Source: a bacterium
GTDB taxonomy: Bacteria; Hinthialibacterota; Hinthialibacteria; Hinthialibacterales; Hinthialibacteraceae
Length of the DNA stretch: 64,000 nucleotides
NCBI GenBank assembly: GCA_041946805.1
Contig: JBHGBC010000007.1
Span: 7,527-71,526 of the forward strand
Direction: 5' to 3'
How positions within the stretch are numbered: position 1 is the stretch's first letter; each line of letters opens with the position of its first letter. Under the pieces are notes generated by a model. That model was not told where the DNA came from and did not search any database. It saw only the letters and a program-made list of their open reading frames with translations. Of this stretch, positions 10,682 to 56,389 are shown one piece after another. Both the position numbers and the translations under genes were made by a program.

Positions 10682-10702
10682 ATGCAGGCAGGCTGCCTGC
10701 AT
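10682..10702. promoter_or_regulatory. perfect 21-bp palindrome ATGCAGGCAG-G-CTGCCTGCAT, candidate operator
   Basis: 10+1+10 perfect dyad, about 90 bp upstream of the 10793 membrane-protein gene. Lies just inside the inverted-repeat-flanked segment. Confidence 0.4.
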
Positions 10703-10792
10703 CACCAGGGCCTGGATCCCCGCTTGCGCGGGGATGACATTACATCAGGCAGCCATAACAAAACATAACACGAAAATGATGATGGATACCGA

Positions 10793-26724: not shown

Positions 26725-29070
26725 TCATTGGAAATAATCCATCGCGGTAAACCGGTCTTTCCAATACGAATTGTTCCGGCGGGAATGGCGCTCCCCGGAC
26801 GAGCGGCGGCCGGACCGGTCATCCTCTCCGGCGGGATCGTGCCGGCTGGACCGGTTGGATTGGGAATCGTTCTTGGCGGAATCCTGTTGTTTGGCGTCCA
26901 GCGTCTCCTTGGAGATGGTCAACCGTTCCACGCGAATGCCTTGATCGTCGAACGCGGAACGCAGGGCGGTGATATTCTGTTCCAGCAAGGCGCGGGTGGC
27001 GTGTTTTTCGGCGCTGATCTGGGCGGACAACAGGTTGTTTTCCAAGGTCATGCGCACGACGATATGGCCGAGCGATTCGGGAACCAGGCGCAAGCTGACC
27101 TGGCTGCGCTGCGAGCCGAGTGATCCTTGCACGGCGCGCACGATCTGGCGGGAAGCGGTTTCCTGCAATTGGGCGATTTTTTCGGTATAGGCCTGGGCCA
27201 TGCCGGACGCGGAGGGAGTCTGGGCTGCGTGGGTTTCATTCATCACCGGCGGCGCGGCGTCTGGATGCATGGGCTGGTGGCATTGCGCCTGAACGATTTC
27301 CGGATGGACCGGGGTTGCCGGGGTGGTGGCCGGACGGGAAGCCGGCGGCAAGGTTTCCACTACCGTGTCCAGGGTGGCGCCAGAAGACGGTGGCGCAGAT
27401 TCGGTTTGGGATTCCGGAATCCGCTGGAGCTGGGTGTCCGGTTCGCGGTTGGCGGCTTCACGGTGAAGAGAAGCAGATGCGGTTGTCTTTTTCACAACCG
27501 GTATGGCTATCTTTTCCATGGATTCGTTCGAGCATTGGTCCGATGGGCCGTCCTCGGCCATGACATCGATCCCAGGGATGAAATTCTTCCGTTTGTCATC
27601 CAGTTTCACCGAGCCGGGATCATGGGATGGGATTGTCTTACGGGCTTGCGGATTCGCGGCGGACAGGAAAACTGTCTGATCATCTTTCATTCCCCACTTG
27701 GAAGGGATTTCACTGGAGTCCGAAGTGAACAAGAGAGGGGAACGGTCCGGGTACTCCGGGGCTGTGCCCGGGGCGCCGGTTGATGGGAATCCGTTCTGAA
27801 ATCCGGAGGGCATTCCCTGAAACGGAGGAAGAGAATTGGCTGATTGGATGGTCTCCCTTGTTGTGGAAGTGTTGATTTCATCCGTACATTCAATGGGCTC
27901 TTCCAAGGTTATTTGAGTGAAAACAGATTCCGCCGGGAGAGACGGTTTCTCAGTTTTCCGCTGCATGTTCATATCTATTGGGGAGGAATGAACCTTGCCG
28001 GCGGCATGCGGCATGGAACCATGGTGGTCCGCGGATATTCTAGAATGCTCCGTCAGAAACGTGGTTTCAGCGGATAGTTGTGCGCCGGACTGGAAGTGTG
28101 TGACTTTCCTGACCGTCTTCTCTGAACTTATCCCTACGGGAATTGCGGTGTTGTCATTATTGGCGCTTTTGATGCCAACCGACTCCTCTTTGATACTCCG
28201 CTTTGGGGAGTGCTTTGATTCCTGTATTTTATATTTCCCGGTGGGTGCCGGCTGATCAGGGCTGGACTGGATATTCAATGCCATCGGCCTGTCGGGAGTG
28301 GCTAAAAAATGCCGAGAATCGGCAATATTTTCCCACGTTGGGATATCATTTGGGGGGATGGATGGCCCGGATGGAGAAGGGATGGGAATGTCCGTTCCCT
28401 GAGGGTATCCTTGCACGGCAGGTTGGGACGGAAAATCGAAAGAAACACGTGTAGTTTGGCACTCATGCGATGCATTCGAGTCGAGGATGGTTTTTGACAC
28501 ATCGATGGAGTTGTATCCGTTTGACTTGGCATCCCCTCGTTTATCCCGGACCAGGCTGCCAGCGTGAATAATCCGGGGGGAGAGAGCCGGGAGTTCGCCT
28601 GTTTCTTGCGGCGCCGATGCGAAGTCCAGCAGCCGTTCCGTCAAAGGGGAATCCGGTTTCGAGGAAATGCGGTTGCCTTCCAGATTTCCGCCCGCCGGGA
28701 GGGCCAGCGGATCCTGAGTGGAATCCGGCGGGGAAAGTATATTTAAGTGAATCGTGGGATTTTTGTCTTGGCCCTCGGTCCGCGTGGATTCGTGGGACAA
28801 GAAAAGCGCACGGGCAGAGCTTTCCTTTAAGTTCTCTGCCGATATTGCTTTTCGAGACTGGCCAGGCCGGGCCGGGGAGGTTATGGTCACTTCCTGGCGG
28901 GAAGAATGATTGGTTGAAGGACGATGCAGCGCTTCCTGAAACAGGGGGAAGAAGGGGGAAGTGGAGGTTGAGTTCAAAACCGTGGGAGCCTTGGCTCGAA
29001 GCCCGGCCGCCGTATTGGAACGGGAGCGGTCCAAAAAGAAAACAGCGGCGTTTTGTCCCATGTTTACCAT
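26725..29070 (-). CDS. fliK: flagellar hook-length control protein FliK, large Ser/Pro-rich form
   Basis: C-terminal Flg_hook domain: VSLRLVPESLGHIVVRMTLENNLLSAQISAEKHATRALLEQNITALRSAFDDQGIRVERLTI. Long low-complexity N-terminal region. Start is ambiguous (29061-29103). Confidence 0.7.
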   Translation of the reverse strand: MVNMGQNAAVFFLDRSRSNTAAGLRAKAPTVLNSTSTSPFFPLFQEALHRPSTNHSSRQEVTITSPARPGQSRKAISAENLKESSARALFLSHESTRTEGQDKNPTIHLNILSPPDSTQDPLALPAGGNLEGNRISSKPDSPLTERLLDFASAPQETGELPALSPRIIHAGSLVRDKRGDAKSNGYNSIDVSKTILDSNASHECQTTRVSFDFPSQPAVQGYPQGTDIPIPSPSGPSIPPNDIPTWENIADSRHFLATPDRPMALNIQSSPDQPAPTGKYKIQESKHSPKRSIKEESVGIKSANNDNTAIPVGISSEKTVRKVTHFQSGAQLSAETTFLTEHSRISADHHGSMPHAAGKVHSSPIDMNMQRKTEKPSLPAESVFTQITLEEPIECTDEINTSTTRETIQSANSLPPFQGMPSGFQNGFPSTGAPGTAPEYPDRSPLLFTSDSSEIPSKWGMKDDQTVFLSAANPQARKTIPSHDPGSVKLDDKRKNFIPGIDVMAEDGPSDQCSNESMEKIAIPVVKKTTASASLHREAANREPDTQLQRIPESQTESAPPSSGATLDTVVETLPPASRPATTPATPVHPEIVQAQCHQPMHPDAAPPVMNETHAAQTPSASGMAQAYTEKIAQLQETASRQIVRAVQGSLGSQRSQVSLRLVPESLGHIVVRMTLENNLLSAQISAEKHATRALLEQNITALRSAFDDQGIRVERLTISKETLDAKQQDSAKNDSQSNRSSRHDPAGEDDRSGRRSSGERHSRRNNSYWKDRFTAMDYFQ

Positions 29071-29278
29071 CCGTGGCGACTTTCGCGGCGGCTCCGGCCG
29101 CAATGTGGGAACAGATAATGATCAAGGAAAAGCAAAGTCGATGCCAGGTTTGATTTATGGCAAGAAACCAGCGTGAGTATACGGTAATCACTTGATTTTG
29201 TTGAGCTAAAAACCACAATGGCGAAGGAGGGACGGGCAGGGGAAGTCAGGGAAAGGGGCAATTTTTGCCCAGGATGGG

Positions 29279-36093: not shown

Positions 36094-37287
36094 ATGAAAC
36101 CGGAACGCAAACGAATCGAGGAATGGCGCGCGGCGCTTTCCCCGGAATGCCGCGGCCGGATCGATCAGGCCTGTGACATAATCTGCCGGACGAAGGAACG
36201 GGGCGGCAAAATCGCCGTGGTGACCGGTAGCGGGCCGAACGTGCATGAAGGCGTCACGACGCAGATCGCCGAACTGATGCGGGCGGGAATCGTCGATGGG
36301 GTCACCACCAGCGCCGCGGTGGTGGCGCACGAAATGGGGGGCGTGCTGGACCGGGTGAAACGGGTGGACGGCCGCGCCTTGGGCATCGCGCCTGACCTGC
36401 TGCCCCGGGGCGGATTGTTTGAGTTTTCGTTGATCGATAAGACACGGCTGGAAGTGGTCGCCGGCGATCTCCCCATCGATTGGGAACTGTGGAACCAAGG
36501 GGAGAAAGCCAGCGGCGCGGTGATCATCAAGGCCGCGGGCAACATGGGCTATCCCATGGGATTGTGGATCGAGCAGGCGGCGGAGCGCATTCTCCATCTG
36601 GCCCGGGACCAGAATCAGCCATTCGAAAAAATCGCGGGAGACTATGCCGATGAACGCACCATGACCGGCCAGGGCGCGCGCCGCGGAGTGCCAATGTTGG
36701 TCACGATTCCCCAGTTGGTTGGCGGGGGGATGGTGGGATTGGCCATCGGCGACAGCATCCCCATTTCCCAGCGCGCCCGCCGGATCGCGGAACTGCTCGA
36801 ATCGGCCGAGGTCATCATCGAATCCGCCGTGGTTTTGACCCAGGAGATCCACGACGGCCCCTATGAAACCTTTACCGGACACGGCATCTGGGCGGGCTGG
36901 CAAGGCCAATCCACCTACCGGCTGGAAAACAAGCAGCTGATCCGCATCGATCTGGATTCCGCCCTCGACCGCGCCTGGCGGTTCGAACGCGAATCGCGGA
37001 CCGTACAGGAGGCGATCGACAAGGGACTTCCAAAAACCAAACTCATGGATATTCCGTTTCGCATGGAAATGTCGGGATTCGCCCGGCTGGAAGGCAGTTT
37101 GCCCATCATCGCCGACATCGGTGTGGTGTGGCCCATTCTCGCGGCGGGCCTGGAGGAACGGCTGGGGATCGAGTTGGACTTTATTTCCGCCCCGCAACAG
37201 ACGCCGGAAGGCCAGCGCATGCGCGCATGGATCGCGGACGAAATCCAGCCGATCCAGCCGGTGCGGGAGAGAACGCTTACCGGATGA
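36094..37287 (+). CDS. hypothetical protein (397 aa), Rossmann-like N-terminus
   Basis: Protein-like composition and GC3. The antisense 524-aa ORF is Arg/Gly/Pro-rich junk that spans a REP. No family recognised (IAVVTGSGPNVHEG). Confidence 0.5.
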   Translation: MKPERKRIEEWRAALSPECRGRIDQACDIICRTKERGGKIAVVTGSGPNVHEGVTTQIAELMRAGIVDGVTTSAAVVAHEMGGVLDRVKRVDGRALGIAPDLLPRGGLFEFSLIDKTRLEVVAGDLPIDWELWNQGEKASGAVIIKAAGNMGYPMGLWIEQAAERILHLARDQNQPFEKIAGDYADERTMTGQGARRGVPMLVTIPQLVGGGMVGLAIGDSIPISQRARRIAELLESAEVIIESAVVLTQEIHDGPYETFTGHGIWAGWQGQSTYRLENKQLIRIDLDSALDRAWRFERESRTVQEAIDKGLPKTKLMDIPFRMEMSGFARLEGSLPIIADIGVVWPILAAGLEERLGIELDFISAPQQTPEGQRMRAWIADEIQPIQPVRERTLTG

Positions 37288-37356: not shown

Positions 37357-37387
37357 CCTGTCCTCCGGGAGAGGGTTCGGGTGAGGG
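37357..37387. repeat. REP-like element copy (CCTCCGGGAGAGGGTTCGGGTGAGGG)
   Basis: Intergenic. Lies downstream of both the convergent 36094 and 37504 genes. Confidence 0.8.
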
Positions 37388-37503
37388 AGGTCCTTGCTTG
37401 GGCGTCCCTCACCCGGCTGCTCCCTGATGGGGGGGAGAAGAAAAACAAACTGGCGAGGCATCGGTGTTTCCAAGGAAAATTGGCTAGGGACTGGAATCCA
37501 GGC

Positions 37504-37851
37504 TTAGCTGGATGACTGGGCTTCGGGCGGCTCGTGTTTCGGCTTCTGAAGTTCCATCATGCGCGACCACACCCAGGTACAGGCTTGGTGATATTCCTCC
37601 TTGCCGGGTGGAATCGAATTCTTGAAGTTCGTGTAATCCATGGTTTGGACATAATCCGCGAGCCATTTTTCCACTTCCGCCACTGGAAGGAACGCGCGGA
37701 AGCGGTAATCGGCTTCAGGGTCCTGAAAAACCTCCGCGTCCGGAAAAGCGGATTCGATATCCCCTTGGCAACGGGCGCGGACCAAGCGGCGCTCCGGATG
37801 GTTCCGGTCTTTCACGATCGAGAGAAAAGCCTGGCTGGTGAAGATCCACAT
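37504..37851 (-). CDS. small hypothetical protein (115 aa), partner of the HIRAN-domain protein
   Basis: 24-nt gap to the upstream HIRAN gene on the same strand. Protein-like sequence (MWIFTSQAFLSIVKDRNHPERRLVRARCQGDIESAFPDAEVF...). No family recognised. Confidence 0.5.
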   Translation of the reverse strand: MWIFTSQAFLSIVKDRNHPERRLVRARCQGDIESAFPDAEVFQDPEADYRFRAFLPVAEVEKWLADYVQTMDYTNFKNSIPPGKEEYHQACTWVWSRMMELQKPKHEPPEAQSSS

Positions 37852-37875
37852 GTATCTCTTCCTCCGCGCGATGAT

Positions 37876-39366
37876 TTACGATTCCACCGGGAACGCCGCG
37901 AGATGGCAGAGGGAATCCTCGAACCACACGCCGGTCCCGTAGAGGGAGGATTCCCGCACCATCAGTTCGTTGCCCAATCCGATGGACGGATCGCACAGAT
38001 TGACCGATAGGCTGAGCCGGACGAGGAAATCGCGGGCTGCCTGGGGATCGGTTTTCGGCAGGCGGCGGGGATCGAAAGCCGCCTGGGTGAAGTACGATCC
38101 GGCCAGCTGGTCCCAGCAATCCTTGAAAACGCCGGGATCATGGAAGAAATCCAGGCCGATGATGGCATCCCCGCTGCCCACGAGGACCCCCGCCGCGTTG
38201 TCCGGCAGTACCAATTTTTCCCGGAAGGATTGTGTCTTTTCCTCCGATTGCTGGTAGCCGTCGGTGACCGAGGAGGTGGGGGAGCAGGCGTGCAACTCAT
38301 GCAGGTGCAGATCCACCTCTTCCCAGACCTCGCCCTGATCGCTCATGGCCATCCCGGTGGAGGCCCGGCATTCCTGGACACTGCGCATTTTCTTGCCGCG
38401 CAGCCGGGGGTGGGCGTAATACGCGGATTGGAAGCGGCGGGACGAATACCGCCAGCGCCCCCGCTCCACGCAACTGACGGGGATGCGCAGCGACTGCTTC
38501 GCGGCGACCAGGATCGACACGTTGACCACCCGGTTCTGCTTGGCCCCCACCAGAATTTCCCCCTCGGGGACCAGGAGGGGTTTGGAACCGAGGTTGTGGA
38601 CCGTCAGTTCCTGCACCCGGCCTTCTTCGGACACTTCCTCGATCTGCGCCTCGCCGGTTTCCAGGGCCTTGCGCAGCAGGACGAAGGGGGCCTGCGAGCC
38701 GTTGAGCGGATACAGCGGGAACAGGGTGAGGTTTTGGTGATGGATGGCATCGCCCATTTTCAAGCCGCCGATTTTTTCGCGGATCGTGTCCAGCAGCGAG
38801 TAGGTCCGCGAGTGTTTCAGGGCTTCCGCCTTGGCGGGAAAGAGGGCGAGAAGCAGGTGCGTTTCGGGAGCCACGCCGCGCGCCGCGGTTTTCTCCAGCC
38901 GTTTGGACAGACCCCAGATCACGTCCGGATTTTTGTAGGTGTCCAGTTTGACGAACACCTCGCGGATGGTCTCATGCAGCGCCTCGACGTCGGTGGCGGG
39001 ATTTTCGATGGGCGCCAGGATCGAAAAACCGTGCCGCGTCAGGAACACCTTGAGTTCCGCGGGAAAGCCCTCGTGCCGGCGGAAGGGATTCGGATTCCAC
39101 GAGGCGGGAACCCGGGCCTCGAGCCAGACCGCTCCCCGGTCGATCAAGGGCGCAAGCCACCGCGTCATCTCGCGGGAAAGATAACCGACCCGCGCGAAAT
39201 CCGGATTCTTCACCAGAATCGCGTTGGAGTCGTGCGGATTGTAGATGTCCCGCTCCAGATGCAATTCGTCCCCGGGACGGACTTCGCCCGCCACGTATTG
39301 GCACCCGGTCAGCCTTGTCTGAATCTCACCCAGATACTTTTCTTGTACATCGCCGATGGGGGTCAT
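37876..39366 (-). CDS. HIRAN-domain protein fused to an uncharacterised ~380-aa C-terminal domain
   Basis: Start MTPIGDVQEK at 39366 follows the RBS GGGAGA. The N-terminal ~110 aa match the HIRAN consensus: GEVRPGDELHLERDIYNPHDSNAILVKNPDFARVGYLSREMTRWLAPLIDRG (L.L.REP.NPYD.NAI.V....GYL.RE.A..LAPL.D.G). The C-terminal region (LTLFPL...GEILVGAKQNRVVNVSILV...) is not recognised. Confidence 0.65.
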   Translation of the reverse strand: MTPIGDVQEKYLGEIQTRLTGCQYVAGEVRPGDELHLERDIYNPHDSNAILVKNPDFARVGYLSREMTRWLAPLIDRGAVWLEARVPASWNPNPFRRHEGFPAELKVFLTRHGFSILAPIENPATDVEALHETIREVFVKLDTYKNPDVIWGLSKRLEKTAARGVAPETHLLLALFPAKAEALKHSRTYSLLDTIREKIGGLKMGDAIHHQNLTLFPLYPLNGSQAPFVLLRKALETGEAQIEEVSEEGRVQELTVHNLGSKPLLVPEGEILVGAKQNRVVNVSILVAAKQSLRIPVSCVERGRWRYSSRRFQSAYYAHPRLRGKKMRSVQECRASTGMAMSDQGEVWEEVDLHLHELHACSPTSSVTDGYQQSEEKTQSFREKLVLPDNAAGVLVGSGDAIIGLDFFHDPGVFKDCWDQLAGSYFTQAAFDPRRLPKTDPQAARDFLVRLSLSVNLCDPSIGLGNELMVRESSLYGTGVWFEDSLCHLAAFPVES

Positions 39367-39654
39367 GATCGTTCTCCCTGTCTGGACAGTATGGACCAGC
39401 CTCAATTCCAAGCCTGCCATGCCCGGTTCCTTGGAAATCCCATGAAGAGGATGTCTTCTTGGGATTCCCCTTGAATACAAGAACGATGCCAGGTTGCGAT
39501 GGCGCGGGACTCCCGGGGCGTAATTGTCTGAATCCAGTGATCCTGATGAAGATAAAATTACCAATAGGGTAATATTTCGGCGGGGTTGGGGCCAGGATTT
39601 GAGTTCAATTATTGCGTGGGAGATTCAATATTTGAGCACGGGGCGGCGGCGGGA

Positions 39655-41229
39655 TCATTCGTCCTGCACCCATTTGCGGACGGTGTTGGGGGAGATCCCC
39701 AACGCCTCGGCCGCCTGAGAGATGTTGCCGCCGAAAAGCCGGTGGACGTGCCGGATGTAGGTTTTGCGGATTTCCGCCTCGGTCACGACCTCGGCGGGAT
39801 GGGATGGACAGAACATACGCCGGCCGGAGGCGTTGTCCTCATCCGCGCGGGCGGTGCCGGCGTGGAACAGGGCGATTTCCTCGGCCAGAATATCCCGCAC
39901 CGGCTGTTTCATGTAAGCCGCCCGCCGGAGGATGTTGATGAATTGGCGGATGTTGCCCGGCCAATCGTATTTGTAAATGGCCTCCCAGTCGGCCTTGGTG
40001 ATTTCCAGGGCATACCCTTTGTGCTTGAGTTCATAGATCTCGCTGCGGGCGATGGAGGGGAGATCCTCCAGCCGTTCCTTGAGCGGGGGAACGTGCAAAA
40101 ACAGGACATTGAGGCGGTGGAACAGGTCCCGGCGGAACGTGCCCGCGCGGACCATGGCCGGCAGGTCCTGATTGGTGGCGGCGATCACGCGCACATCCAC
40201 GTCATGGGATTTCATGGTGCCCAGGGGCGTGACCCGGCGTTCCTCGAGCACGCGCAGCAGCTGGGTTTGCACGGGCAGCGGAAGCTCGCCGGCTTCGTCA
40301 AGGAACAGGGTACCATCGTCAGCCGCGGCGAACGCCCCGGGCTGGGCGTCCTTCGCTCCCGTGTAAGCCCCCGCGGCATGGCCGAACAGCCGGTCGTGGG
40401 CCAGATCGGTGTTGAGGCTGAGGATGGCGCAATTGACCGGAATGAAGGGACCTGGGCGGCCGCTGGCCTCGTGCAGCAGCCGGGCGGCGATTTCCTTGCC
40501 GGATCCCGTGGGACCGATCACCAGCACGGGCTCGGGGACCGGTCCCAGGCGGGCGATCTGAGTGCGCATGCGCTGCATGGCCTTGCTGTTGCCCAAGGGA
40601 ATGGCGTAGCGCCCCTCTTTCCGGTAGGATACGGCTACGCGGCGGTCGGCTTCGGTGAAGGGAACCAGCCCCGCGAGTTTTTGGATGACATGGATGTAAC
40701 TGGACTTGTCCTCGTATTTGAAATACCGGCTGGCGCCGGCCGCGATCAAATCGTGCCAAAGGGCATCGGTTTCCGACCGCTTCAGGTCGCGGTTCACAAA
40801 TTGCCGGGCCAGGGTCAACAAAGTTCCCGTGATCTCGGTGTCCCGGATTTTGAGATGCTGATACACCGCCTCGGTGTTGCTCGAACAGGGTATAAACACC
40901 GGCACGCACACTGGGATCAACAAGGTCCGGTATTCATCCAGGTATCCCCGCCCGCAGTACCACAAGACCTTGATCCGCTTTTTTACAAACGCTCCGAGGA
41001 CGGTGGTCACCCCCGCGATGTTATCATACACACCCACGCCGCAGATATGGATGATGCCCGGCGGGGGATCCAGTCCGGCGATTTCCTCCAGGGTCAGGGC
41101 GATCCGTTGCGCGCTGGTGGTGACGATCTGGGCCTTGGGGAAGCGCTGCAACACCATGGCGGCGGCGCATGCCCCATCCGTGCCGTTGGTGGTGAGAATC
41201 AAATGCGGCTGATTTTGGGAATACGGCAT
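39655..41229 (-). CDS. sigma-54-dependent transcriptional activator (bEBP) with non-receiver N-terminal domain
   Basis: AAA+ sigma-54 activation domain: Walker A VLVIGPTGSGKE, GAFTGA-variant FGHAAGAYTGA, and GTLFLDEAGELPLPVQTQLLRVLEE. C-terminal Fis-type HTH (GNISQAAEALGISPNTVRKW). The ~240-aa N-terminus lacks the REC-domain acidic pocket. Confidence 0.85.
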   Translation of the reverse strand: MPYSQNQPHLILTTNGTDGACAAAMVLQRFPKAQIVTTSAQRIALTLEEIAGLDPPPGIIHICGVGVYDNIAGVTTVLGAFVKKRIKVLWYCGRGYLDEYRTLLIPVCVPVFIPCSSNTEAVYQHLKIRDTEITGTLLTLARQFVNRDLKRSETDALWHDLIAAGASRYFKYEDKSSYIHVIQKLAGLVPFTEADRRVAVSYRKEGRYAIPLGNSKAMQRMRTQIARLGPVPEPVLVIGPTGSGKEIAARLLHEASGRPGPFIPVNCAILSLNTDLAHDRLFGHAAGAYTGAKDAQPGAFAAADDGTLFLDEAGELPLPVQTQLLRVLEERRVTPLGTMKSHDVDVRVIAATNQDLPAMVRAGTFRRDLFHRLNVLFLHVPPLKERLEDLPSIARSEIYELKHKGYALEITKADWEAIYKYDWPGNIRQFINILRRAAYMKQPVRDILAEEIALFHAGTARADEDNASGRRMFCPSHPAEVVTEAEIRKTYIRHVHRLFGGNISQAAEALGISPNTVRKWVQDE

Positions 41230-41642
41230 GATTTGTAAGAACAAGCATCTCTATTCGGGTGATCAAGCTTCTATACTATATTATTCCAGGACGGGTCATG
41301 GTAGATCTCATGGAACACGCATCCGGATTTTCGATGAGTGTTGACGATCCATGGTTATATATTTCTGGGGGAGAAATAGGGATGTTGTCCGAGAGGTCTC
41401 CCCATCGATTGGTTACGCGAAGGGTGTCATCCAGGCGAAACGGGGTTCTGGCGATTGTCCAGGATTGAAACTCCGGATGCCAGAGGATCCTCCAATATTA
41501 TGGAAGGGAGGCGCGTTGCCGCGTGCCCCCATTATTTGAATTGGACATCCCTCCCTCCTCTCCCAGAGAAATTGGTTCCTCGATTTGATTCAGTTGCGGG
41601 ATGCAACGCATCAAAACCGAACAATTCCCGGATGGCCCATTT

Positions 41643-44600
41643 TTAATGCGTCCCTTTCCACCTATCCGAGAAGAGCAGCAAGTCTTTCCGGTCGATCCGG
41701 CCGTCCTGGTTGAGATCGGCGGCGGATGATCCATGCCAGTTGTGGATGAGGATCAGCAGGTCCACGCGGTTGACGAACCCGTCCTGGTTCAGATCACCGA
41801 ATAGTGAATGAGCCTTCGTCGTAAACCAGGCGAACTCGGACCACTCGCTCCATTGTTCGTTGGCGTCCTGGTACCGGACGCGCCATTCGTAGTTTTGGCC
41901 GCTTTGGAGTGGACCTAACGGGATCTTGGTTTGGGAGGTGGGAGCGAGGGATCCGCTTTCCCAAACCAATGTGCCGAAGGTGTACTCGCGGATTTCGAAT
42001 TGCGCCGCCTTCCGCGGAGTGCCCAGGGGATGCGCGTATTCCGAGGCTTGCAGGACCGGGGTCAAGGCGGGCGAATACGCGCCGGCCACGGGAGAAAGAG
42101 CCTCGGGCGGGTTGGGCGGCTGCGTGGCGAGAGTATGGATGGTTTCGTTGGTGACGATCGCCGCGTTTGCGTCGAACACGATGGATGCCTGGTTGCGGAT
42201 GGCGGTCCCCGGCTGCAATCCGGCCGCGGGATCGATCCGGAACGTGACATGGCCCTCGCCGCGGCCCGTGGCGGAGTCGTTGGGCGGCAGGAAGCCCGCG
42301 GTCCCGTCCAGGGGGATCGCGCCGGTTTCGGGATCGATCAGGGTCAACGTCCACCGCGCCCGGCCGGTGTAGGGATTCAGGCGCGCCTCGATGTCCACCG
42401 CGTATTCATCCCAGGCCACACGTTGATAGTGATCGGTATGCCCCGCCGGGATGGGAATGATCCGGCCGCCGATGGCCACCTCGGACAGCTCGAAGGAAGT
42501 CCAGTCCAATTGGTTGCTCAGATCGTCGGTGAGGATGACCTGTTGGACCGAGGCCGTGGCTTCCGGGGTGTTTTCGAAGAAGATGGTGTAGGTCAGGGGA
42601 TCCTGGCCGGAGATGACCGCCTCCTTGCCGCCGGGACCGGTCTTCTCGTTGGGATCGCGAGTGACGACCACAGGGGAGTTGGTTTGCTGGACGGGGGTCG
42701 TGGGCGGCTGGGGGAAGGGAGATTTTTCGCCCGTGCAATCGAGATACTTTTGAAACGCCTTTTGCGCCCGCGCGACGTACAACTGATACGCGTGGTAGCG
42801 TCCGGAGGCGGCGTTGGTGTTATCGCGGATGCTGCGGACCGCATCGATGGTGGATTCGACCAGTTTGATCGATTCGTTGACGATCCCGATCAGGTTGAGG
42901 ACCGGTTCGAAGGCGCGCTTGAATTCTTCACTCTTAATCATATTCATAAGTGGTTTCAACTTGGCCAGGAGACCCAGGAAGGTATGAAATTCCTCGGCGA
43001 TGGAGCGCCAAGTCAGCTCGTTGTTCCGTGCGTCTTTCAAGAAGGTGAGCCGGCCCTTGTATTGTTCGATGTAGGAAAGCACCTTGAGCAGCCGCTGCCC
43101 CCAGACTTTGCCTTCCTTCAGTTTCTGGATGGCGGCGATGATCTTGGGGCCGTTGACCACGGCGGCGGCTCCGGCTTCGTAAGCGGCCAGTTCGAGCTCG
43201 GCGATCTTCCCGGCCAGCACCGCGGCCTGCAGGCCTACTTCGCCACCGCTGGCCAGCCAGGTGAAATTGGCGTTGCCCTTGGCCTTCCAGGCGTCCATGT
43301 AGACATATTCCGATTGCGCGAGCAGTTTGCCCACGTTTTTCGCTTCATTACGGCATTGGGCATCGGGATTTTTGACGATGGCGTTCCAGTTTTGCAATCC
43401 GCCCGCGTGGTTGATCATCTCCATCACGCGGGGATCGCGGGCCAGGCCGCTGCGTTCGGTCACGAACAGACGGTAATCCGCGGGAATGTTGGTGTTGGAA
43501 AGCCAATCGAGGAATCCATCGAGATATTCTTGAAAGCCCCGGGCATTCATCAACGATGCGCTTGGATCATCGGCGAGTTTTTTGGTGGTATCGACGAATT
43601 GCGGTGTGATGGGCCAGGGATCGAAGCCCGCGCCCGGCGCGAGCGGCAGTGCTATATCCTTGACGAATGAGCCGGATAGATCGGTGACTTCCACGCTGTC
43701 TTTGGCAACCTGGGAACCGAAAATAATATCCAATTGATAACTTCCGACAGCGAGAGGCGTGGACTGATACACCCCCTCCGCGCTCGCGGTGGAGCGGGCG
43801 GCTTCCAGGCCATCCAGTTTGAAGATCACCACCGCGCCCGCCAGTGGCAACAGGGATGCGCTGTCCCGGATCGTGCCGGTTACGGTTTGGTCTTCACTGG
43901 GCAGGGTGATGCTCAATGGCGGTGTCGCGCCACTCTCCAGCACCGCAAATCCGGACTGCTTGTACCGGGGGAATCCCGCGGCTTGCACGTGGACCTCATA
44001 GGTTCCGGCGGCCATCCCTGCCATGGTGAAAGTTCCATCCCCGGCGCTGAAAGATTTGAGTCCGGGATCCCCGGCCGCTTCTTTGAATAGGACCACTGCG
44101 TCCGAGACGGGATCTCCGGTCCGCGCGGAGACGATTTTGCCCGTGACCAGGCTCTCCGCGGGCAGGGCGAAATCCAGGGATAATGCGGAATCGCCCAGCG
44201 TGACTTGTTGCGTCATCCGGCCCAGGCCGGGTGCGATGACCGCCAGCAGGTAGTTCCCCGGAACCAGGTGGTTCAACTCATACTGGCCGTCCGCGCCGGA
44301 TGAGGCCATCGATCCCTGCCGTACCTCCGCGCCGGGATCGAGAGGAACCGCCTCGATGATGGCGTTCTCCACTCCCAGGGCCGAGGTTCCCGCGGTGATG
44401 GTCCCGGCGATCTTTCCCGATGCCGCGATGAGAGTGATTCCATCCATGTTTCCGTTGACCTGGATGGTCTGTCGCGGGAATGTGTAATCGGCCAGCAAGG
44501 CGCTGAGAGTCAGACTGCGTTGGGGCAGGTTATGGAAGGCGAATCCGCCTTGCCCATCACTCATCACCATGCCCAGCACGACTCCATCCACGCTGACCGC

Positions 44601-47600
44601 CGAGACGAGGCTGTCCGCCAGGGGCGTAATGCCGTCCGCGTCCAGCACCCGGCCGGTGAGGGATCCACCGGGCGGGAGGAGCACGTCGCCCAGCGTGTTG
44701 GCCGCGCCGCTCTGGATTTCGATCATCCGGATTTGCAGTTCATATCCGGTGGCGTTGATCCAGACGCTATGGATTCCCGGCGTAAGCCGGGACACGGTGA
44801 AATTCCCGAGCGCGTTGGTTTGGGCGGTGTCGGACGTTTGCGTGACCAGGTTGGTGAACAGCAGGATGGCATTCTCCAAGGGTGATCCCGCCGCGGCATC
44901 CAAGACCCGGCCTTGGCAGACCGCGCCGCGCTTCATCTGGATCGTCAGGCCGTTGAGTCCCGATTCGGGCACGGTGACCGCGAGCGGCGCGAGGACCTGG
45001 TACCCGTCCGCCTGGCAGCGCAATTCATAATTACCCGGCGCGAGTTCGGCAATGGAATATGTCCCATCCTCGAATGACCAGGCAGGCAGAAGGCTTCCCT
45101 GGGGAGTTTTGAGATAGATCATCGGGTTGGCGATAGGCTGGCCGGTATCGGCGTCCTGGACCACGCCGTTCAAGTACACGGAAGGCTCGAGCAGGAAATC
45201 CACTTCCTTCAAGGCCCGGCCGTTCCAGACCTGCAGCCCGTCGTAGCGTTTGGCGGCGTACGAGGGATGCAGCGCTTCGAGGCTGTAAAGGCCCGCGGGC
45301 AGGGCGGGGAAGCGGTAGGCCCCTGTTTCATCCGCCACCATGGCGCGGATTCCGCCCAGGCCGTCCTGCAGCGTGAGCATGACGCCCTCGAAGGGCGTAC
45401 GGCCGGGCATCTCGAATACGGTTCCCTCGATGATCCCGCCATAGGGAACCCGCCATTCCACGCCGGATACGATTTGCCCTTCGTTCACGTTGATTTGACC
45501 CGGATTGACGCCGGGGTAACCGTTGACCTCGATGGAGTAGATGCCGGAGGGCAGATTGATGAACTCGAATTGCCCTTCGGCGTTGGTATCGGCGGTGGTG
45601 GAGAAGGCGGGAATCCCGGAGCTGGAGATGTTTTGGATCAAGATACTCGCCCCGGTCTGGGGATGGCCGTATTCCTCATCCACCAGCCGGCCGTGGATTT
45701 CCCCGCCCGGTTTTTGTTGGAGGGGGCCGAGGAGGCGGGCCAGCAGTTCATCCGCGCCGGCCAGGATGACGCCCTGACTCCACAAGCCGGTGGCCATTGT
45801 GGCGAGGGCGTCTTGGTAATCACCCCAGGTGGGGCCCACCGCGTCCACGTAGGCGGTCCATTCCGGCGCGTCCCACGCCACCAGCGAATTCAAGTCCTGG
45901 ATGGCCTCCAGGCTGAACGAAATGCGATTCGCGGCGCCTGACTGGAAATAAACGGCGATGGAACCTTCCGCGCCGGGGGCCAGAATCCCCGCCGGGCCTT
46001 CCCGGGGGACCGCGAGGAACCGGACGGGCTTCGTCTCCAGCGGCGCGTCCGGATCGAGGCCGAGGGGGACATCCGCTTCGGACCGGAGCAGCAACACCGG
46101 CGCGGTCATGTCCGCGTCGCCGGTATTTTGATACCGGATCAGCAGCGTATACGTACGTCCCGGGCGGATGGCGTTGGGGGCCAGCAATTCCGCTTCCAGG
46201 CGCGGGCCGATACCGGGAGTCACCTGGAACGCGTTTTCGAAGGTAGATTGAGCGATGCCGCCCGGCCATTTCACCTCGAGATTGTACGAACCGATTGGCG
46301 CACCGCGCAGATTCATCCGCGCGTGCAGTTTCGTTGAATCGGGAACCAGGATTTCATAGGCGGAAATGGCCGTCCCGCCCGGTCCCGCCAGGCGTACCTC
46401 CACGCCGGATTGGAAGAGGGAGCCTTCGAGGGACAATGTGACATCGCCGAGATTGCCACCCTGCGTGGGCGACAGCGAAACGACATATTGGTCCACATAG
46501 TCGAATTGGATTTGATACGTTTCCTGGCTGTCAGCCAAACCGATGGCGAAGACGAGGAAATAATAATCCCCCTCCCCGGTTTGGGTCATCAGCAATTCAT
46601 ACGCGGGCCGCAGTTGAGGTGTAATAGACCGGCGGTCATACCGCGCGGGAGAAGGTTCGTACCCCAGGGCGGCAAAGATGTGGTACCGGCTGGAAGCGTT
46701 GGCGTGGATCAGACGGCACAACAAGTTGCGCCCGGCTTGCGCGTGGAATTTGTACAATTTCAGGCCATATTTCTCGACGGTTTCGGAATAGGGCGTATGG
46801 AGCTCCACCTCGCGCGCCACGAGGACCTGATCCGGGACCTGCTCTTCGCTGGTGAACCACGGCTCGAACAGGACTCCCTGCGAGACGGAGTCCCCGTTCC
46901 CCGGGCCGCTTCCCGAGGGGCCGTTCGCGCTGCCCCACCAGTTGAAGGTGGCGTTCACGTTGATCGAGGGCGAGAGGTTGTTCACTCCCGCCTGGTTGCC
47001 CACGATGTGGGAAAACTGCACGGCCGCGTCCATGCCCGATTGCCCGTTGGTTTCCAGCGCCGTCCCGTTGTTCAGAAAGCGGCTGTAGGCGGTGGTCATG
47101 CGGGCGGATTGCAGCACACGCAAGGCAAATTGATTGTATTCGAAACGGCAGCTCTCCAGGCTCACATCCGCCAGGCCCCGCGCTTCCACACCCGCCCGGC
47201 CGATGCCCGCGTTGCGGATCACCGCATGGCGGATCGATCCCTTGCCTTCATCCTGGAGGAGAATGCCGGCATAGACCGACCAGCGCGTCGCGTCGGGAAC
47301 CGTGGGTGGAGCGGCCAGCTGGACAGGCTGATTTATCTGGCCGTTGATGCCCAGGAATCCCGAGACCACGAATCCCGCATCCCCTCCTTCGAGGGCGATG
47401 AAAGTCCCCGGCCGGATTTGCAAGGAACCGGTGGGCGCGATGGTCCGCGAACGGTGAATTTCGTAATATCCGCCCAGGAGCGCGTGGAGCGCGCCGCTTT
47501 CTTTCAACTCCCCGCTGCCGATCTCCAATCCGGCCTGGTCTCCGGAGACGATGTTGCCCGGCTCGGATGACGCGGCGGTGAGGAAATTCACCGAACCCGT

Positions 47601-50600
47601 CCGGTTGTTGCCCAGAAATTGATTGTTGCCGAAGCGGATACGCGATTCATCGCCGTAGGTGAACAACGCGTCCGTGTTTTCCTGGAACACGTTGCCCCGC
47701 AGCGTGAGTTGGGCCTGGTCCCGCACAGCCACGCCCTGCCCGTTTTTTGTGAACCGGCTGGCGGTGATTTCCACCGCGGCCTTCTGATCGCCCCGGAGGC
47801 CGCCCCGGGTGTTATCCTCGAACGACAGGTTGGTGAGCGTGGCGGCGGTGGCTTCGGCGATCATCCCGTAGTTCAGGCTCTCGCGCAGCGTCAGGTTTTC
47901 CAACGTCACATCGGCGCCTGCCATGAGGCGGAACTGAGATTCCAATCCCTCGGACGCGAAATTGGAGCCGCCGTATTCCACCTCCGCCTGGCTGAGGCGC
48001 CCGGACGATCCGGCCGTGAACACCAGCGCGCCCCAATGACCCCGGGCGGGAACTGTCTGGGCCGATGTGAAAAGAATGGGGAGCGTATCGGAACCGGCCG
48101 CATCCAATCTCCCTTTTATGAGAAGATCCGATGAGATTTGCAGAAACTGAATCGTGTTGCCCTTGGCAATGGTAATCCGGGCTTCCGGGGCGATTTCGAC
48201 GTCCTCGGAGATCAGGTAGGGAATGCCCGGTTCGATCCACTCGCCGCTGCCGGTCCAGCTGCCGCCCGCGATCTTGATGGCGTTGAAGCGGTTGGCCACG
48301 GCGGCGGCATCCTGAATGACGGGAAACGCGTTGGGGAAAATCTGCGCCGCGAGGCCCTTGTTATTTTGGATGACCGGTTCGATGAACACGGGGGAGCCGT
48401 TCTTGATCCAAATGCCGTCGCTGTTGCTGTATTGAAACACGCAATTTTCCAAGGCGGGCGAGGCTCCGTCACAAAATACCATGGAAGCCTGCGTAAGGCT
48501 GGCGAAGTTGGAACCGCCGTATTCCATCACGCAATGCTGGAGCCGGGTGATGGCGTTGTTGGTGGTGGAGCTGAAATAGATCCCGCCCCAGGATCCCGGC
48601 GCGGGCGTCCGATGGAGCGAAGTGAAACGGATGGGATTGGACACGGTCCCCACGGCCCACAGCGCGCCGTCCACCCGGAGATCGGCCGCGATGTCCGTGA
48701 ACTGGAGTTCCGTTCCCGGATCGATGGTCAGCATGGCTTCCGGGGCGATCACCACATCGTTGCGGATCAGGTAGGGGATTTCGGCATAATCCCACCGCCC
48801 GCTGCTATTCATGGTTCCGTTCAGGATCAGGATGCCGTCGAACTGGTTACTCTCCGCCGAGACCGCAGTGAATTGCGGGAAAGATTGGAGGTCCATGAAA
48901 GCGGCGTAATTGGCGTTGGCTGCGAAACGCACGGATGCCACGTTCGCGCGGGAAGTGATCAGGCTCAATCCGTTGGTATGGGAGTTGGCGATCCAGCAAT
49001 CGCTCAGCGTGGGGGATGATGCTTCGCAGCGGATCATGGAATCCACCGTGGCGGAGGCGAAATTGGTTCCACCGTAGCGGATCTGGCAATGTTTCAAGAT
49101 CGAGCCATCCGATCCCGAGTTGCTGAAGAGGATTCCTCCCCACGCGTTATCGGGGATGTCTTTCAGGGAGGTGAACACGATGGGCCGGCCGGTTTCCCCC
49201 GCCGCGTACAAGGTTCCCTGGATGATGAAATCCGTGGCGATGTCTCGGGATTGCACCACCGTCCCCGGATCGATGGTCAACGTGGCGCCGGAGGCGAGGG
49301 TGATGTCCGAATCGAGAAGATAGGGGATTTCCGCGTAGTCCCAGCGGCCGCCGGCCAGGATGGTCCCTCCCCGGATCAGGAGCGCGTCGTATCCGTTGCC
49401 CTCGGCCGTGATGCCGGTGAACACGGGGAAACACCGCGCGTCCATGTAGAGGGCGGCCGCCCGGTTGTTCACGAAGTGAATGGAGGTCAATTGGGCCTGG
49501 GAATCGATCAGGCTGATCCCGGCGTTGGCGGAATCCTCAACCCGGCACGCGTTGAACGTGGGCGAGCTGCTTTCGCACCGGATCATGGAATCAATCGCCG
49601 CGGACGCGAAATTGCTTCCCCCGTGGCGGACCGCGCAATGTTCCAAAACCGAGGCGTTGGCCGTGGAACCCGTGAAGAGGATGCCTCCCCAGCGGTTTTC
49701 CGGTTTGTCTCCCATCGATGTAAACAATATAGGTTGGTCCGCGCCGCCCACGGCATGCAAGGTTCCCTTGACCAGCAGGTCGACGGCCAGGTCTCCCGTT
49801 TGGATGACCGTGGCGGGATCGATGGTCAACGTCACGCCGGATTCGAGGGTCACATCGCCCGCGAGGAGGTAGGGGAGTTCGGCATAGTCCCAACGCCCAC
49901 TGGCAGTCAATGATCCGCTCCGGACCTGGATGGCGTCGAAACCGTTGCCCTCGGCGGTGACGGACGTGAACACGGGAAACGAGGCGGTGTCCATGGTGAC
50001 CGCCGCGCGGGGATTCCCCTTGAACAGGACCGATGAGATCACGGCGGCTGAATTCACCAGGCACATCCCGTGATTCTTTGAAGCCTCCATCCGGCAATTG
50101 CGGAACAGGGGGGAGGCGTTTTCGCAGCGGATCATGGCGTCCTGGGTGGCCGAGGCGAAATTGCTGCCCCCGTGGCGGAGCTCGCAATATTCCAGCAGGG
50201 ACGCGTTGGTTTCATTGCCTGAAAATAGAATACCGCCCCAACTGTTCGCGGCCTCGTCGTTCAGGGAGGTGAAAACAATCGGATTGCCGCTGGCGCCCAC
50301 CGCCGTCAGTTTGCCGGCCGCGATCAGGTCGTCTTCGATTCCGGCAAACTGGATGACGGCGCCCGCCTCGATGGTCAACGCCGCGCCGCTGTCGATCTGG
50401 ATATCATGGTCAACCAGGTACGGCAGGTTCGAAAACCGCCAGACATTCGTTTCCAGGATATGGCCCCCATCGATACGGAGGCCATCGAAGCGGTTGCCCG
50501 TGGCGCTGTTGTTGGACAAGGCGGGGGAGCAGGAGGGAGTCATCTGGACCGCGTCTTGCGCGTTGGCGGTAAAGACGCAATCGGAAAGGACCGCTTCCGA

Positions 50601-51432: not shown

Positions 51433-51631
51433 CAAAAAAGGGATATAACAAGCGCTTGCTGTGCTTTGAAAAAGGAGCGGTGCACAGTTTTTGAATCCTT
51501 GACAACTCGGGAAGATCATGTCCGTTCCGGCCCGGGATACTCATTATTTCAATTGTTCACAATCACTTCACACCGCGGACCGGTTCCAGCACAATGATGT
51601 TCATAACAAAATAGCAAAGGCTGAATTAGCC

Positions 51632-54740: not shown

Positions 54741-55009
54741 AATACCTTTTCAAAGTGTTTTTACTTCCCAAATCACGCAAATGCCCCTGGTGATCAATCA
54801 TGGATGTTTCCTTTCGGGAAAGGCTCTTCCGTTGCCCGGGTTTTCAACCCCAAATTCCCGGCTCACCTGCTCAAAAGCCGGGGAACATGATATGATTTCT
54901 GGATTCGGCCGCGCGCGGGGGCGAGAAGATATTTCGTACATTTCCCAGGCCCCGGCGGGCGGACACAATCCGCAACGAGAAACGCAGTTGGTCAGGGGAA
55001 TACCGAATA

Positions 55010-56389
55010 GTGGATGAAATGGTCCATATCGAAATACAGAATGCCAAAGCCATAACGCTCCCCGCATGGCATCCCGGCGGTTGGCGGTCGCGGCCGGTTC
55101 TGCAACAGCCCGAGTACGAGGATCCCGCGCGGCTGGAGCAGTGCGTCGACGTGTTGCGCGAGAAACCGCCGCTGGTCGCCCGGGGCGAAGTGGACCGGCT
55201 CCGTTCGATCCTGGCCGAAGCGGTGCGGGGGAAACGGTTCGTCCTGCATGGCGGGGATTGCGCGGAACGGTTCACGGATTGCACCAGCGCGGCCTTGACC
55301 GCCAAACTCCAGGTCCTTTTGCAAATGAGCCTGGTGTTGACGTACGCCACCCGCAAACCGGTGATCCGCATCGGGCGTCTGGCCGGCCAATACGCCAAGC
55401 CCCGCAGCGAACCCTACGAGCGGATCGGACAGGCGCAACTGCCGGTTTACCGCGGCGATCTGGTCAATTCCCATGAAGCGAATCCCGAGGCGCGCCGGGC
55501 GGATCCCGGCCGGATCATCGAGGGGTACCATCACGCGGCCGCCAGCCTGAATTTCATCCGCGCCCTGATCGAGGGCGGTTTCGCCGATTTGCATCATCCC
55601 GAGCAATGGAACCTGGATTTCGTCAAGAACGGCGCGTACAACCAATCCTACCGCCGGGTGGTCGACGCCATCACCGACGCCATCGCCTTCATGGAAACCG
55701 TGGGAGTGTCCGATTCCGCCGAGCATCTCAAACGCATCGAATTTTACACGTCGCATGAGGCGCTGCTGCTTCCGTACGAGGAAGGCCTGACCCGTGGATT
55801 CGGAGAACGGGACTTCTACAATCTGGGCGCGCACTTCCTCTGGCTGGGGTACCGGACCAGTATCCCGGACGGCGCACATGTGGAATACCTGCGGGGGATC
55901 CGCAATCCGGTGGGCATCAAGGTGGGGCCGCGGACGAAACTGGACAACCTGTTGGAAATTCTCGAGCGGCTCGATCCGGAGCGAGAACCGGGGCAGGTTA
56001 CGCTCATCACCCGCTTCGGGGCCGCCCAGGTCGATGCCGGCCTGCCCCTTCTCCTCCACGCCGTCGCGGAGAGCGGCCACCCGGTGTTGTGGAGTTGCGA
56101 TCCCATGCACGGGAACCTCGAATATACCCGCGAGGGACGCAAAACCCGCCGTCTCGGTTCTATCTTTTCCGAGTTGGAACAGACCTTTGCCATCCACAAC
56201 CGCCTGGGTTCGTGCCTGGGGGGGGTCCATTTCGAACTCACCGGCGAGGCGGTCACCGAGTGTGTCGGGGGATCCAGCGGATTGACGGAATCGGACCTGT
56301 CGCAATGCTACGAAACCGCCTGCGATCCCCGGCTCAATGGCGCTCAGGCCCTGGAGATGGCCTTTTTAATCGCGGACCTGCTGCGGTGA
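55010..56389 (+). CDS. aroF: 3-deoxy-7-phosphoheptulonate (DAHP) synthase, class II
   Basis: Class II DAHPS blocks: WRSRPVLQQPEYEDPA, HGGDCAERF, KPRSEPYE, LPVYRGDLVNS, and WCDPMHGN. Exact start is uncertain. Confidence 0.85.
   Translation: MDEMVHIEIQNAKAITLPAWHPGGWRSRPVLQQPEYEDPARLEQCVDVLREKPPLVARGEVDRLRSILAEAVRGKRFVLHGGDCAERFTDCTSAALTAKLQVLLQMSLVLTYATRKPVIRIGRLAGQYAKPRSEPYERIGQAQLPVYRGDLVNSHEANPEARRADPGRIIEGYHHAAASLNFIRALIEGGFADLHHPEQWNLDFVKNGAYNQSYRRVVDAITDAIAFMETVGVSDSAEHLKRIEFYTSHEALLLPYEEGLTRGFGERDFYNLGAHFLWLGYRTSIPDGAHVEYLRGIRNPVGIKVGPRTKLDNLLEILERLDPEREPGQVTLITRFGAAQVDAGLPLLLHAVAESGHPVLWSCDPMHGNLEYTREGRKTRRLGSIFSELEQTFAIHNRLGSCLGGVHFELTGEAVTECVGGSSGLTESDLSQCYETACDPRLNGAQALEMAFLIADLLR

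Follow-up and report, generated by a model that had tools for sequence, protein, structure and literature searches.

Within a 64,000-nucleotide stretch of contig JBHGBC010000007.1 (NCBI GenBank assembly GCA_041946805.1, positions 7,527 to 71,526 of the forward strand), which belongs to a bacterium of the Hinthialibacteraceae and is referred to here as the window, three genes code for a sigma-54 activator, a HIRAN-ARPP-1 fusion protein and a small protein of 115 amino acids, designated small115. The solid part of our finding is that a dedicated sigma-54 switch stands before a protein joining a reader of DNA 3' ends to an ARPP-1 domain. We give an even chance to the wider reading that the genes constitute a signal-inducible, sigma-54-dependent operon with its own activator, which encodes a 3'-end-targeted enzyme acting on sugar or ADP-ribose. 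The original prediction, made from the DNA letters and their translated reading frames, had named three co-directional genes at this place, and all three were confirmed on the minus strand. The features of the module are listed below.

37504-41244, minus strand: activator, HIRAN-ARPP-1 and small115 genes, three co-directional genes head to tail
39655-41229, minus strand: sigma-54 activator, 524 amino acids (Pfam Sigma54_activat, AAA_lid_14, HTH_8)
40585-41229, minus strand: N-terminal sensor domain of the activator, residues 1-215, predicted DHH fold of RecJ/Cdc45 type without catalytic motifs
40492-40515, minus strand: Walker A motif GPTGSGKE
40096-40593, minus strand: AAA+ sigma-54 interaction domain (PF00158, E 7e-56)
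40354-40371, minus strand: GAYTGA sigma-54 contact loop, residues 287-292
39673-39741, minus strand: C-terminal Fis-type helix-turn-helix, DNA binding (Pfam HTH_8, E 7.8e-6)
39367-39654: leader between activator and HIRAN-ARPP-1, holding a sigma-54-type element
39604-39634, minus strand: two near-palindromic boxes of the type TCAA-N3-TTGA, 20 nt apart (direct repeat D1)
39554-39576, minus strand: palindrome AATATTACC-N5-GGTAATTTT (inverted repeat I4)
39476-39491, minus strand: sigma-54 (-24/-12) promoter TGGCATCGTTCTTGTA, TGGCAT-N5-TTGT, beginning 125 nt upstream of the HIRAN-ARPP-1 ATG
37876-39366, minus strand: HIRAN-ARPP-1 protein, 496 amino acids (Pfam)
39106-39330, minus strand: HIRAN domain, residues 13-87 (Pfam PF08797, E 2.5e-17)
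39220-39240, minus strand: NPHDSNA motif of the HIRAN domain, aligning with NPYDKNA of HLTF chain 4s0n
37891-38763, minus strand: ARPP-1 domain, residues 202-492 (PF20208, E 9.8e-78)
38530-38547, minus strand: invariant ARPP-1 motif GAKQNR
38452-38481, minus strand: invariant ARPP-1 motif PVSCVERGRW
38323-38343, minus strand: invariant ARPP-1 motif SDQGEVW
37504-37851, minus strand: small115, a 115-amino acid accessory gene of a phage-borne family

The reading frame of the activator (39655-41244) extends to a TTG at 41244, and the ATG at 41229 is its likely start because the resulting 524 amino acids fit the lengths of the orthologues. Its AAA+ domain scores 189 bits against a Pfam cut-off of 20.2, and the claim of a bacterial enhancer-binding protein with a GAYTGA instead of a GAFTGA loop was borne out. 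This conservative variant is common to the window and the related loci L003, L001, L083 and L085 (L-numbers are used throughout as labels of related loci), and GAFTGA is present in L008, L009, L012 and L015. The core formed by the AAA+ domain and the helix-turn-helix matches RtcR models best (NCBIfam, 250 bits; PADLOC RtcR_PspF2, E 1.4e-90); the 250 bits obtained with the RtcR equivalog NF038308 concern the core only and lie below its cut-off of 650, which leaves the protein outside RtcR itself.

A -24/-12 promoter had been suspected in the leader, and TGGCATCGTTCTTGTA was found there and is conserved in orthologous loci; together with the module's own activator, it provides the dedicated sigma-54 control that had been proposed. 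Taken alone, an accidental occurrence of this element in the leader has a chance of roughly 5%. Strict elements are also located upstream of the orthologous operons, namely TGGCATTTTTCTTGT in L083, TGGCATCCTTCTTGT in L003, TGGCACACTATTTGT in L008 and the canonical TGGCACTCCTCTTGC in L001, and the strict pattern TGGCAY-N5-TTGY occurs 15 times in the 2.66 Mb strand-bases of all loci. Apart from the promoter element, the intergenic regions of L003 and L008 are barely alignable. Looser related elements were detected in L009, L012, L015, L177/178 and L180. Between the activator stop codon and the promoter lie the palindrome at 39554-39576, which recurs almost unchanged in L083 as CGAAATATTACTCTATTGATAATT, and the boxes at 39604-39634, to which related boxes correspond at the same place in L083 and L003; judged by their sequence, both are plausible candidates for upstream activator sites. 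The predicted 5' untranslated region opens, directly after the -12 element, with an inverted repeat whose 16-nt arms are 88% complementary (39433-39469, minus strand); L083, the closest relative, does not share it. The scan for sigma-70 promoters and terminators yielded no signal over background.

A second, near-consensus sigma-54 promoter, CTGGCATCGACTTTGCT, is located at 29131-29146 (minus strand), approximately 30 nt upstream of the open reading frame 26725-29103 (minus strand), whose product of 792 amino acids matches the flagellar hook-length protein FliK at its C-terminus (PDB 2rrl, E 2.5e-7); flgE follows further downstream (22425-25409). The flagellar genes of the window are probably sigma-54 dependent, and given this canonical sigma-54-type promoter before the fliK-like gene, the organism very probably uses sigma-54.

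The target of the switch is identical to a protein called by NCBI as 'ARPP-1 family domain-containing protein' (P0001); 643 homologues were found, among which the architecture of approximately 495 amino acids is common. The assignment of its N-terminus to HIRAN holds, with 62.9 bits against a Pfam cut-off of 24.7 and an alignment to the solved HIRAN domain of human HLTF, both as a single sequence (E 1.3e-9) and as a profile (E 5.5e-17). HIRAN domains bind 3' ends and stalled forks, and the roles of the pocket residues are taken from HLTF. By alignment, the residues of the 3'-OH pocket appear to be kept, NPHDSNA standing for the NPYDKNA of HLTF and the tyrosine of the G-x-x-Y motif being retained. 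The C-terminal part, which the original prediction could place in no family, is ARPP-1, matched end to end with 261.9 bits against a cut-off of 27 (profile positions 2-297 of 297). In an alignment of 24 diverse full-length sequences, Q277, N278, R279, C299, E301, R304 and W305 are invariant. ARPP owes its definition to a computational study by Iyer, Burroughs, Anantharaman and Aravind (Viruses 2022, 14:1977; PMC9503650), who placed it in systems centred on ADP-ribosylglycohydrolases that are predicted to act against viral ADP-ribosylation. Their paper notes an absolutely conserved cysteine and glutamine, to which C299 and Q277 correspond, and neighbourhoods with HIRAN, WYL regulators and an aminosugar deacetylase, as well as ARPP-1 in secreted proteins and beside sugar-acting enzymes. 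The association of HIRAN with ARPP is already known computationally from the same paper.

The activator's N-terminus had been described as a domain of about 240 amino acids that is not a canonical receiver; the second part stood, as no match to a receiver was obtained, but the length is closer to 215. The domain matches no family in Pfam, NCBIfam or PADLOC, nor do the same domains of 60 relatives, and it shows no similarity to the CARF domain of RtcR (PF06956; hhalign probability 0.2%). A word-indexed protein search with the domain returned two matches only, and 89 matching clusters were obtained when 1.84 billion representative proteins were searched exhaustively with HMMER. Most full-length relatives comprise about 500-550 amino acids with the domain at the N-terminus, and a sigma-54 AAA+ domain is present in 51 of the 60 aligned relatives (59 proteins and the window fragment); the sensor module therefore looks largely dedicated to sigma-54 activators. 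The very confident AlphaFold2 model (mean predicted local distance difference test score, pLDDT, 95.6; predicted template modelling score, pTM, 0.92) shows an alpha/beta core of five strands, after which comes a helical bundle, and according to this model the sensor is a catalytically inactivated DHH fold of RecJ/Cdc45 type. The catalytic motifs of DHH proteins are absent: TNGTDGAC, HICGVG and WYCGRG follow the strands (the correspondence of motifs to strands was derived from the secondary structure), and there is neither a DHH triad nor a DHHA1 domain. A profile search of the PDB with the sensor retrieved no solved DHH protein, only spurious matches to repeat proteins. Cys21, Cys63, Cys92 and Cys108 are invariant in the sensor clade next to HIRAN-ARPP-1 and may occupy the positions that the metal ligands take in DHH proteins. 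Across the wider family, each of them is kept in 35-43 of about 60 members and all four in 19 of 60, which weakens the idea of a universal four-cysteine metal site. In the literature, no paper on a DHH-type input domain of a sigma-54 activator was found.

Conservation of the neighbourhood, which had been proposed as a check on the module, was confirmed by DNA similarity and by the recurrence of the pair of activator and HIRAN-ARPP-1. Among bacterial and archaeal genomes, with one genome per species, 592 candidate stretches contain an ARPP-1 relative, and the survey covered 80 loci and, in addition, loci fetched via individual homologues. Full-length orthologues of the activator stand next to HIRAN-ARPP-1 in L001, L003, L008, L009, L012, L015, L083/84 and L085, and the pair is present in approximately 10 of the approximately 22 distinct full-length HIRAN-ARPP-1 loci. 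Approached from the activator side, by a metagenome scan for the motif WYCGRGYL, ARPP-1 is adjacent in L173, L177, L178, L180, L183, L185 and L194. The window and its closest relative (L173/L083) share 76% nucleotide identity over exactly 41232-37541, with unrelated flanks on either side; at the level of sequence, the trio behaves as a discrete, relocating unit. Decay is visible in two loci: a DDE transposase of an insertion sequence separates an activator remnant from HIRAN-ARPP-1 (L004:546-3017), and the HIRAN-ARPP-1 gene is broken into reading frames of 175 and 339 amino acids in L008:8531-10005.

Of the HIRAN-ARPP-1 loci lacking the activator, five have a WYL regulator and one has a MerR regulator with a vWA protein. 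By open reading frame calling and clustering, the commonest neighbours of ARPP-1 genes are WYL regulators (21 loci), sigma-54 activators (18), ADP-ribosylglycohydrolases (11) and MerR regulators (7); the WYL regulators, counted among the 78 loci with a called ARPP-1 gene, lie adjacent to ARPP-1 in the place of the activator. In Acidobacteria, sigma-54 activators are found immediately upstream of stand-alone ARPP-1 genes (L020:8374-9948, L027:8374-10005, L052:6175-7908 and L067:7484-9880), and the three that were scanned with Pfam (L020, L027 and L067) carry a true RtcR/CARF domain (PF06956, E 1e-6 to 4e-8). WYL, CARF and DHH-fold domains bind or sense nucleic acids or nucleotides. The occurrence of DHH-fold, CARF and WYL regulators at ARPP-1 genes therefore suggests induction by a nucleic-acid-derived signal, and the exchange of regulators of the WYL, RtcR/CARF, MerR and DHH types suggests that this nucleic-acid or nucleotide signal is shared.

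The description as a module for DNA damage or defence was upheld in part. Related loci are located beside repair- or defence-type genes such as AddAB-like genes, RmuC, a WYL regulator, BREX (L001), a NERD-kinase with MAD7 (L085) and ADP-ribosylglycohydrolases, and UvrD/PcrA lies near the module in L083. On the other side, PADLOC-DB v2 returned no defined defence system, with matches at the level of domains only (AAA+ and helix-turn-helix to RtcR_PspF2, the HIRAN segment to PDC-M03B) and none for small115; since no PADLOC system matches beyond single domains, defence is a function that we infer. In the planctomycete locus L002 (the P0060 locus, 1-12000), HIRAN-ARPP-1 lies amid AddA/AddB-like genes, DUF6717, a PafC-like WYL regulator and RmuC, and a second contig with the same protein also has a PDDEXK_4 nuclease there; the locus looks like a cluster of DNA-damage genes. 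No part of the module in the window matched a housekeeping family, which accords with the original prediction.

For the ligand of the sensor, the chemistry of ARPP-1 and the role of small115, we infer the following course of events. The activator would bind the upstream sites just past its own stop codon via its Fis-type helix-turn-helix, and its AAA+ domain with the GAYTGA loop would remodel the sigma-54 RNA polymerase at the promoter TGGCAT-N5-TTGT. The DHH-fold domain, having lost the metal-binding DxD and DHH motifs, may act as a ligand sensor, by analogy with RecJ, Cdc45, NrnA and GdpP; the same analogy points to single-stranded DNA, a short 5'-phosphorylated oligonucleotide or a nucleotide derivative as possible ligands. 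Such ligands could arise on damage or degradation of nucleic acids, for example during phage attack or replication stress. Upon activation, HIRAN-ARPP-1 would be expressed and its HIRAN domain would dock on free DNA 3'-OH ends at stalled nascent strands, gaps or breaks. ARPP-1, with Cys299, Gln277, Glu301, Arg304 and Trp305, might then act on the sugar at or near the 3' end, be it an ADP-ribose adduct or a damaged or abasic sugar. The co-transcribed small115 would serve as an optional accessory from a phage-borne family.

Several observations weigh against an inducible operon of this kind. The genes flanking the module in the window are ordinary (kdsB, a transporter, recG and a giant surface protein) and form no defence island. 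The -12 element of the window clade is TTGT, where the consensus has TTGC, and rpoN is not encoded within the 64 kb. The pocket of the sensor could bind a metal or sense the redox state instead of a ligand. Neither a solved structure nor a solved relative of ARPP-1 was found in the PDB, and the literature yielded no experiment on ARPP; HIRAN-ARPP-1 is therefore a known but uncharacterised kind of fusion. No sigma-54 promoter was found before the ARPP-1 genes next to RtcR-type activators. Finally, the activators of L176, L186, L181 and L182 have no ARPP-1 gene within 7 kb, and the regulator is therefore not exclusive to this target. In L176:4075-6774 and L186:4007-6733 (both minus strand), the activators are divergent from a DnaB_C-like protein of about 900 amino acids, and in L181:7335-8861 the activator precedes sp125, a small protein family considered below, and a DUF2779 protein. 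Given these neighbours, the activator family seems to control several DNA-related targets.

Tolerance of DNA damage is an alternative that we regard as unlikely: Cys299 would covalently link an abasic or oxidised sugar beside a stalled 3' end, in the manner of the SRAP proteins HMCES and YedK, as part of an SOS-independent response. An SRAP-like covalent cross-link of ARPP to sugars is a speculation of Iyer et al. (PMC9503650). The 3'-end and stalled-fork binding expected of a HIRAN domain that aligns with HLTF would suit this role, as would the company of AddAB-like proteins, a PafC-like WYL regulator, a PDDEXK nuclease and RmuC in L002 and of UvrD/PcrA in L083. However, no match of HIRAN-ARPP-1 to SRAP was obtained in Pfam or the PDB, and the chemistry of SRAP needs an N-terminal Cys2, whereas the conserved cysteine of ARPP-1 is internal at residue 299. 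The patchy, mobile distribution and the variable accessories are also more in keeping with a conflict system than with a factor of core repair.

The position of small115, 24 nt downstream of the HIRAN-ARPP-1 gene and preceded by a GGAGGA ribosome-binding site, was as predicted, but its standing as a fixed partner was not: small115 accompanies HIRAN-ARPP-1 in four lineages only (the window, L083/84/173, L003 and L001, three genes downstream in the last). In Candidatus Hinthialibacter it is found by itself, close to a WYL regulator and a Cas3-like helicase, and homologues are present in at least 80 IMG/VR viral contigs, none of which encodes ARPP-1 or the activator. An obligate partnership is thereby ruled out, and small115 is, by its sequence relationships, an accessory that is not always present, belonging to a family carried by phages. 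Searches of Pfam, NCBIfam, PADLOC and PHROGs gave no match to it, and no significant structural similarity was found for its alpha/beta fold, which was predicted with a pLDDT of 83. A second family, sp125, comprises proteins of 125 amino acids with the N-terminus MAINGxRF, lacks a Pfam match and is distinct from small115. In most other loci with a window-type activator (L001:5563-5940, L085:7547-7930, L009:3102-3482, L012:9137-9514 and L015:9117-9494; also L177, L178, L180-L183, L185, L188 and L194), sp125 is the gene closest behind the sigma-54 promoter, and its tie to the activator is tighter than that of ARPP-1. The window has no sp125, nor any remnant of it in the leader.

Among 75 non-redundant nearest phage neighbours of small115, the MuF head protein is the most frequent (7), followed by a virion morphogenesis protein (5), ADPrib_exo_Tox (4), DNA polymerase A (3), ART (3) and DRAT (2). 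In 12 of 80 loci, MuF is fused to a DRAT-like ADP-ribosyltransferase and lies convergent to small115 at a distance of 220-300 nt; in 6 of 80 it is fused to one of the exoenzyme type (ADPrib_exo_Tox/ART), likewise convergent at this distance. The adjacency to MuF holds down to about 40% identity between small115 homologues. Examples are the Mu-like phage contigs with MuF-ADP-ribosyltransferases at L096:5596-7815, L114:3787-5991 and L102:5522-7642 (all minus strand), with small115 homologues at approximately 5001-5303 (plus strand) in each. Giant MuF polyvalent proteins adjoin small115 in L125, L152, L142 and L154, and in other phages the start of the homologue coincides with, or overlaps, the stop codon of the gene for a family A DNA polymerase (L090:4103-6456, L159:1476-3650 and L161:3076-5300). 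The adjacency of small115 and MuF may be a lead to ADP-ribosylation, with phage synteny as the alternative.

From these neighbours follows a further explanation, rather improbable in our view, in which the operon is an inducible counter to phage ADP-ribosyltransferases that extends the ADP-ribosylglycohydrolase-centred systems: ADP-ribose adducts at the ends of DNA would be taken off or made harmless by HIRAN-ARPP-1, and small115, captured from a phage, would inhibit the ADP-ribosyltransferases that virions deliver or confer immunity to them. PMC9503650 defines ARPP by its association with ADP-ribosylglycohydrolase systems. Genes for such hydrolases follow HIRAN-ARPP-1 in L009, L011, L012, L180 and L185, and MuF, the top phage neighbour of small115, is in part fused to ADP-ribosyltransferases of two families with an adjacency that reaches distant homologues. 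In contrast, no ADP-ribosylglycohydrolase, macro, NADAR or phosphatase gene was seen in the window, the first being absent from the genes near the module that were scanned with Pfam or NCBIfam. Moreover, small115 is mostly convergent to the MuF-ADP-ribosyltransferase gene and not downstream of it, other phages have it after DNA polymerase A or by unrelated neighbours, closely related phage contigs swell a count that synteny may account for, and ARPP-1 occurs in no viral locus. A joint version, still more doubtful, would make the whole operon an inducible defence against phage-delivered, DNA-modifying ADP-ribosyltransferases: the dead DHH sensor, possibly gated by metal or redox state through its four cysteines, would detect the nucleic-acid products of the attack, ARPP-1 would remove or trap ADP-ribose on DNA, and small115 would be a captured inhibitor or immunity factor of MuF-fused toxins.

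The least probable explanation is abortive infection by a toxic effector that blocks replication at DNA ends, silent until infection and with small115 as antidote or modulator: the tight off-by-default sigma-54 control, the BREX and NERD-kinase neighbourhoods, the match of the HIRAN region to the candidate defence protein PDC-M03B (at domain level only) and the relocation of the trio as a discrete unit would fit it, but an antitoxin role of small115 is unlikely because neither small115 nor a fixed small partner of any kind accompanies most HIRAN-ARPP-1 genes, no PADLOC system is complete, and the occurrence of ARPP-1 in secreted proteins and by sugar-acting enzymes, reported in PMC9503650, is unlike a nuclease-like toxin.

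As for the surroundings of the module, the following feature lies between the convergent gene ends downstream of small115.

37379-37414, no strand: repetitive extragenic palindromic (REP)-like inverted repeat GGGTGAGGG/CCCTCACCC

This repeat probably marks the 3' boundary of the operon or terminates it. The REP elements said to border the module were recovered: the 9-mer GGGTGAGGG has 10 copies in the window, with about one expected, at the intergenic sites 10611, 13471, 16925, 33161/33185, 35940, 37379/37406, 51332 and 60556, of which two are inverted pairs between genes that are capable of forming hairpins. Long open reading frames on the plus strand at 38140-39474 and 39586-41238 were rejected as shadow frames of GC-rich sequence. 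Directly upstream of the module is a giant reading frame of 3152 amino acids with repeated beta-helix-like modules (41643-51101, minus strand); since L083 has different flanks, this frame does not belong to the conserved unit. Sizeable reading frames without a Pfam match at E 1e-5 are located at 36094-37287 (plus strand, convergent with the module), 51518-54139 (plus strand) and 54992-56305 (minus strand).

ARPP-1 is a widespread, uncharacterised domain with catalytic-looking invariant residues, and a sigma-54 switch on HIRAN-ARPP-1 provides an experimental handle: the inducer defines the trigger, and HIRAN defines the class of substrate. The DHH-fold sensor would be a new class of input domain for sigma-54 activators and, after Cdc45, the second case of an inactivated RecJ-like module in a non-nuclease role. 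The small115 relatives by MuF-fused ADP-ribosyltransferases offer a testable link to a role against ADP-ribosylation.

Compared with known systems, the module is closest to the ADP-ribosylglycohydrolase-centred and HIRAN-ARPP systems (PMC9503650), with which it shares ARPP-1 with the invariant cysteine and glutamine, the association with HIRAN and, in related loci, the WYL regulators, vWA proteins and ADP-ribosylglycohydrolase partners. In the section of the paper that was consulted, the regulators are negative, one-component proteins of the WYL and Nudix kinds; sigma-54 control does not appear there, nor do small115 and sp125. The window, in contrast, has a positive, ATP-dependent sigma-54 activator with a predicted DHH-fold sensor and no ADP-ribosylglycohydrolase or phosphatase gene. 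Relative to the published fusion, three details appear to be new: the way in which the operon is regulated, the sensor with its DHH fold and the derivation of the small gene from phages. RtcR, the CARF-bearing sigma-54 activator of rtcBA RNA repair, resembles the activator in its Rossmann-like sensor of nucleic-acid type, the AAA+ domain, the helix-turn-helix and the dedicated nucleic-acid-related operon, but the window activator has no CARF domain, and the adjacent genes are HIRAN-ARPP-1 and small115, not rtcBA. From the members of the DHH superfamily (RecJ, archaeal GAN/RecJ-Cdc45, eukaryotic Cdc45, NrnA, GdpP and PggH), the sensor differs by an identity of about 10% without similarity at the sequence level, by the lack of DxD, DHH and DHHA1, and by its fusion to a transcription activator. 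Proteins of the HLTF/Rad5/SHPRH type share the HIRAN domain with its N-P-aromatic-D-x-N-A motif; in the window, however, HIRAN is fused to ARPP-1 and not to an SNF2 helicase, RING or nuclease, within a bacterial, inducible, stand-alone protein of 496 amino acids. The WYL regulons (PafBC, DriD and BrxR/CapW) are comparable in that a WYL regulator is adjacent to ARPP-1 where the activator stands in the window, but their regulators are sigma-70 repressors or activators, whereas the window employs a sigma-54 AAA+ activator.

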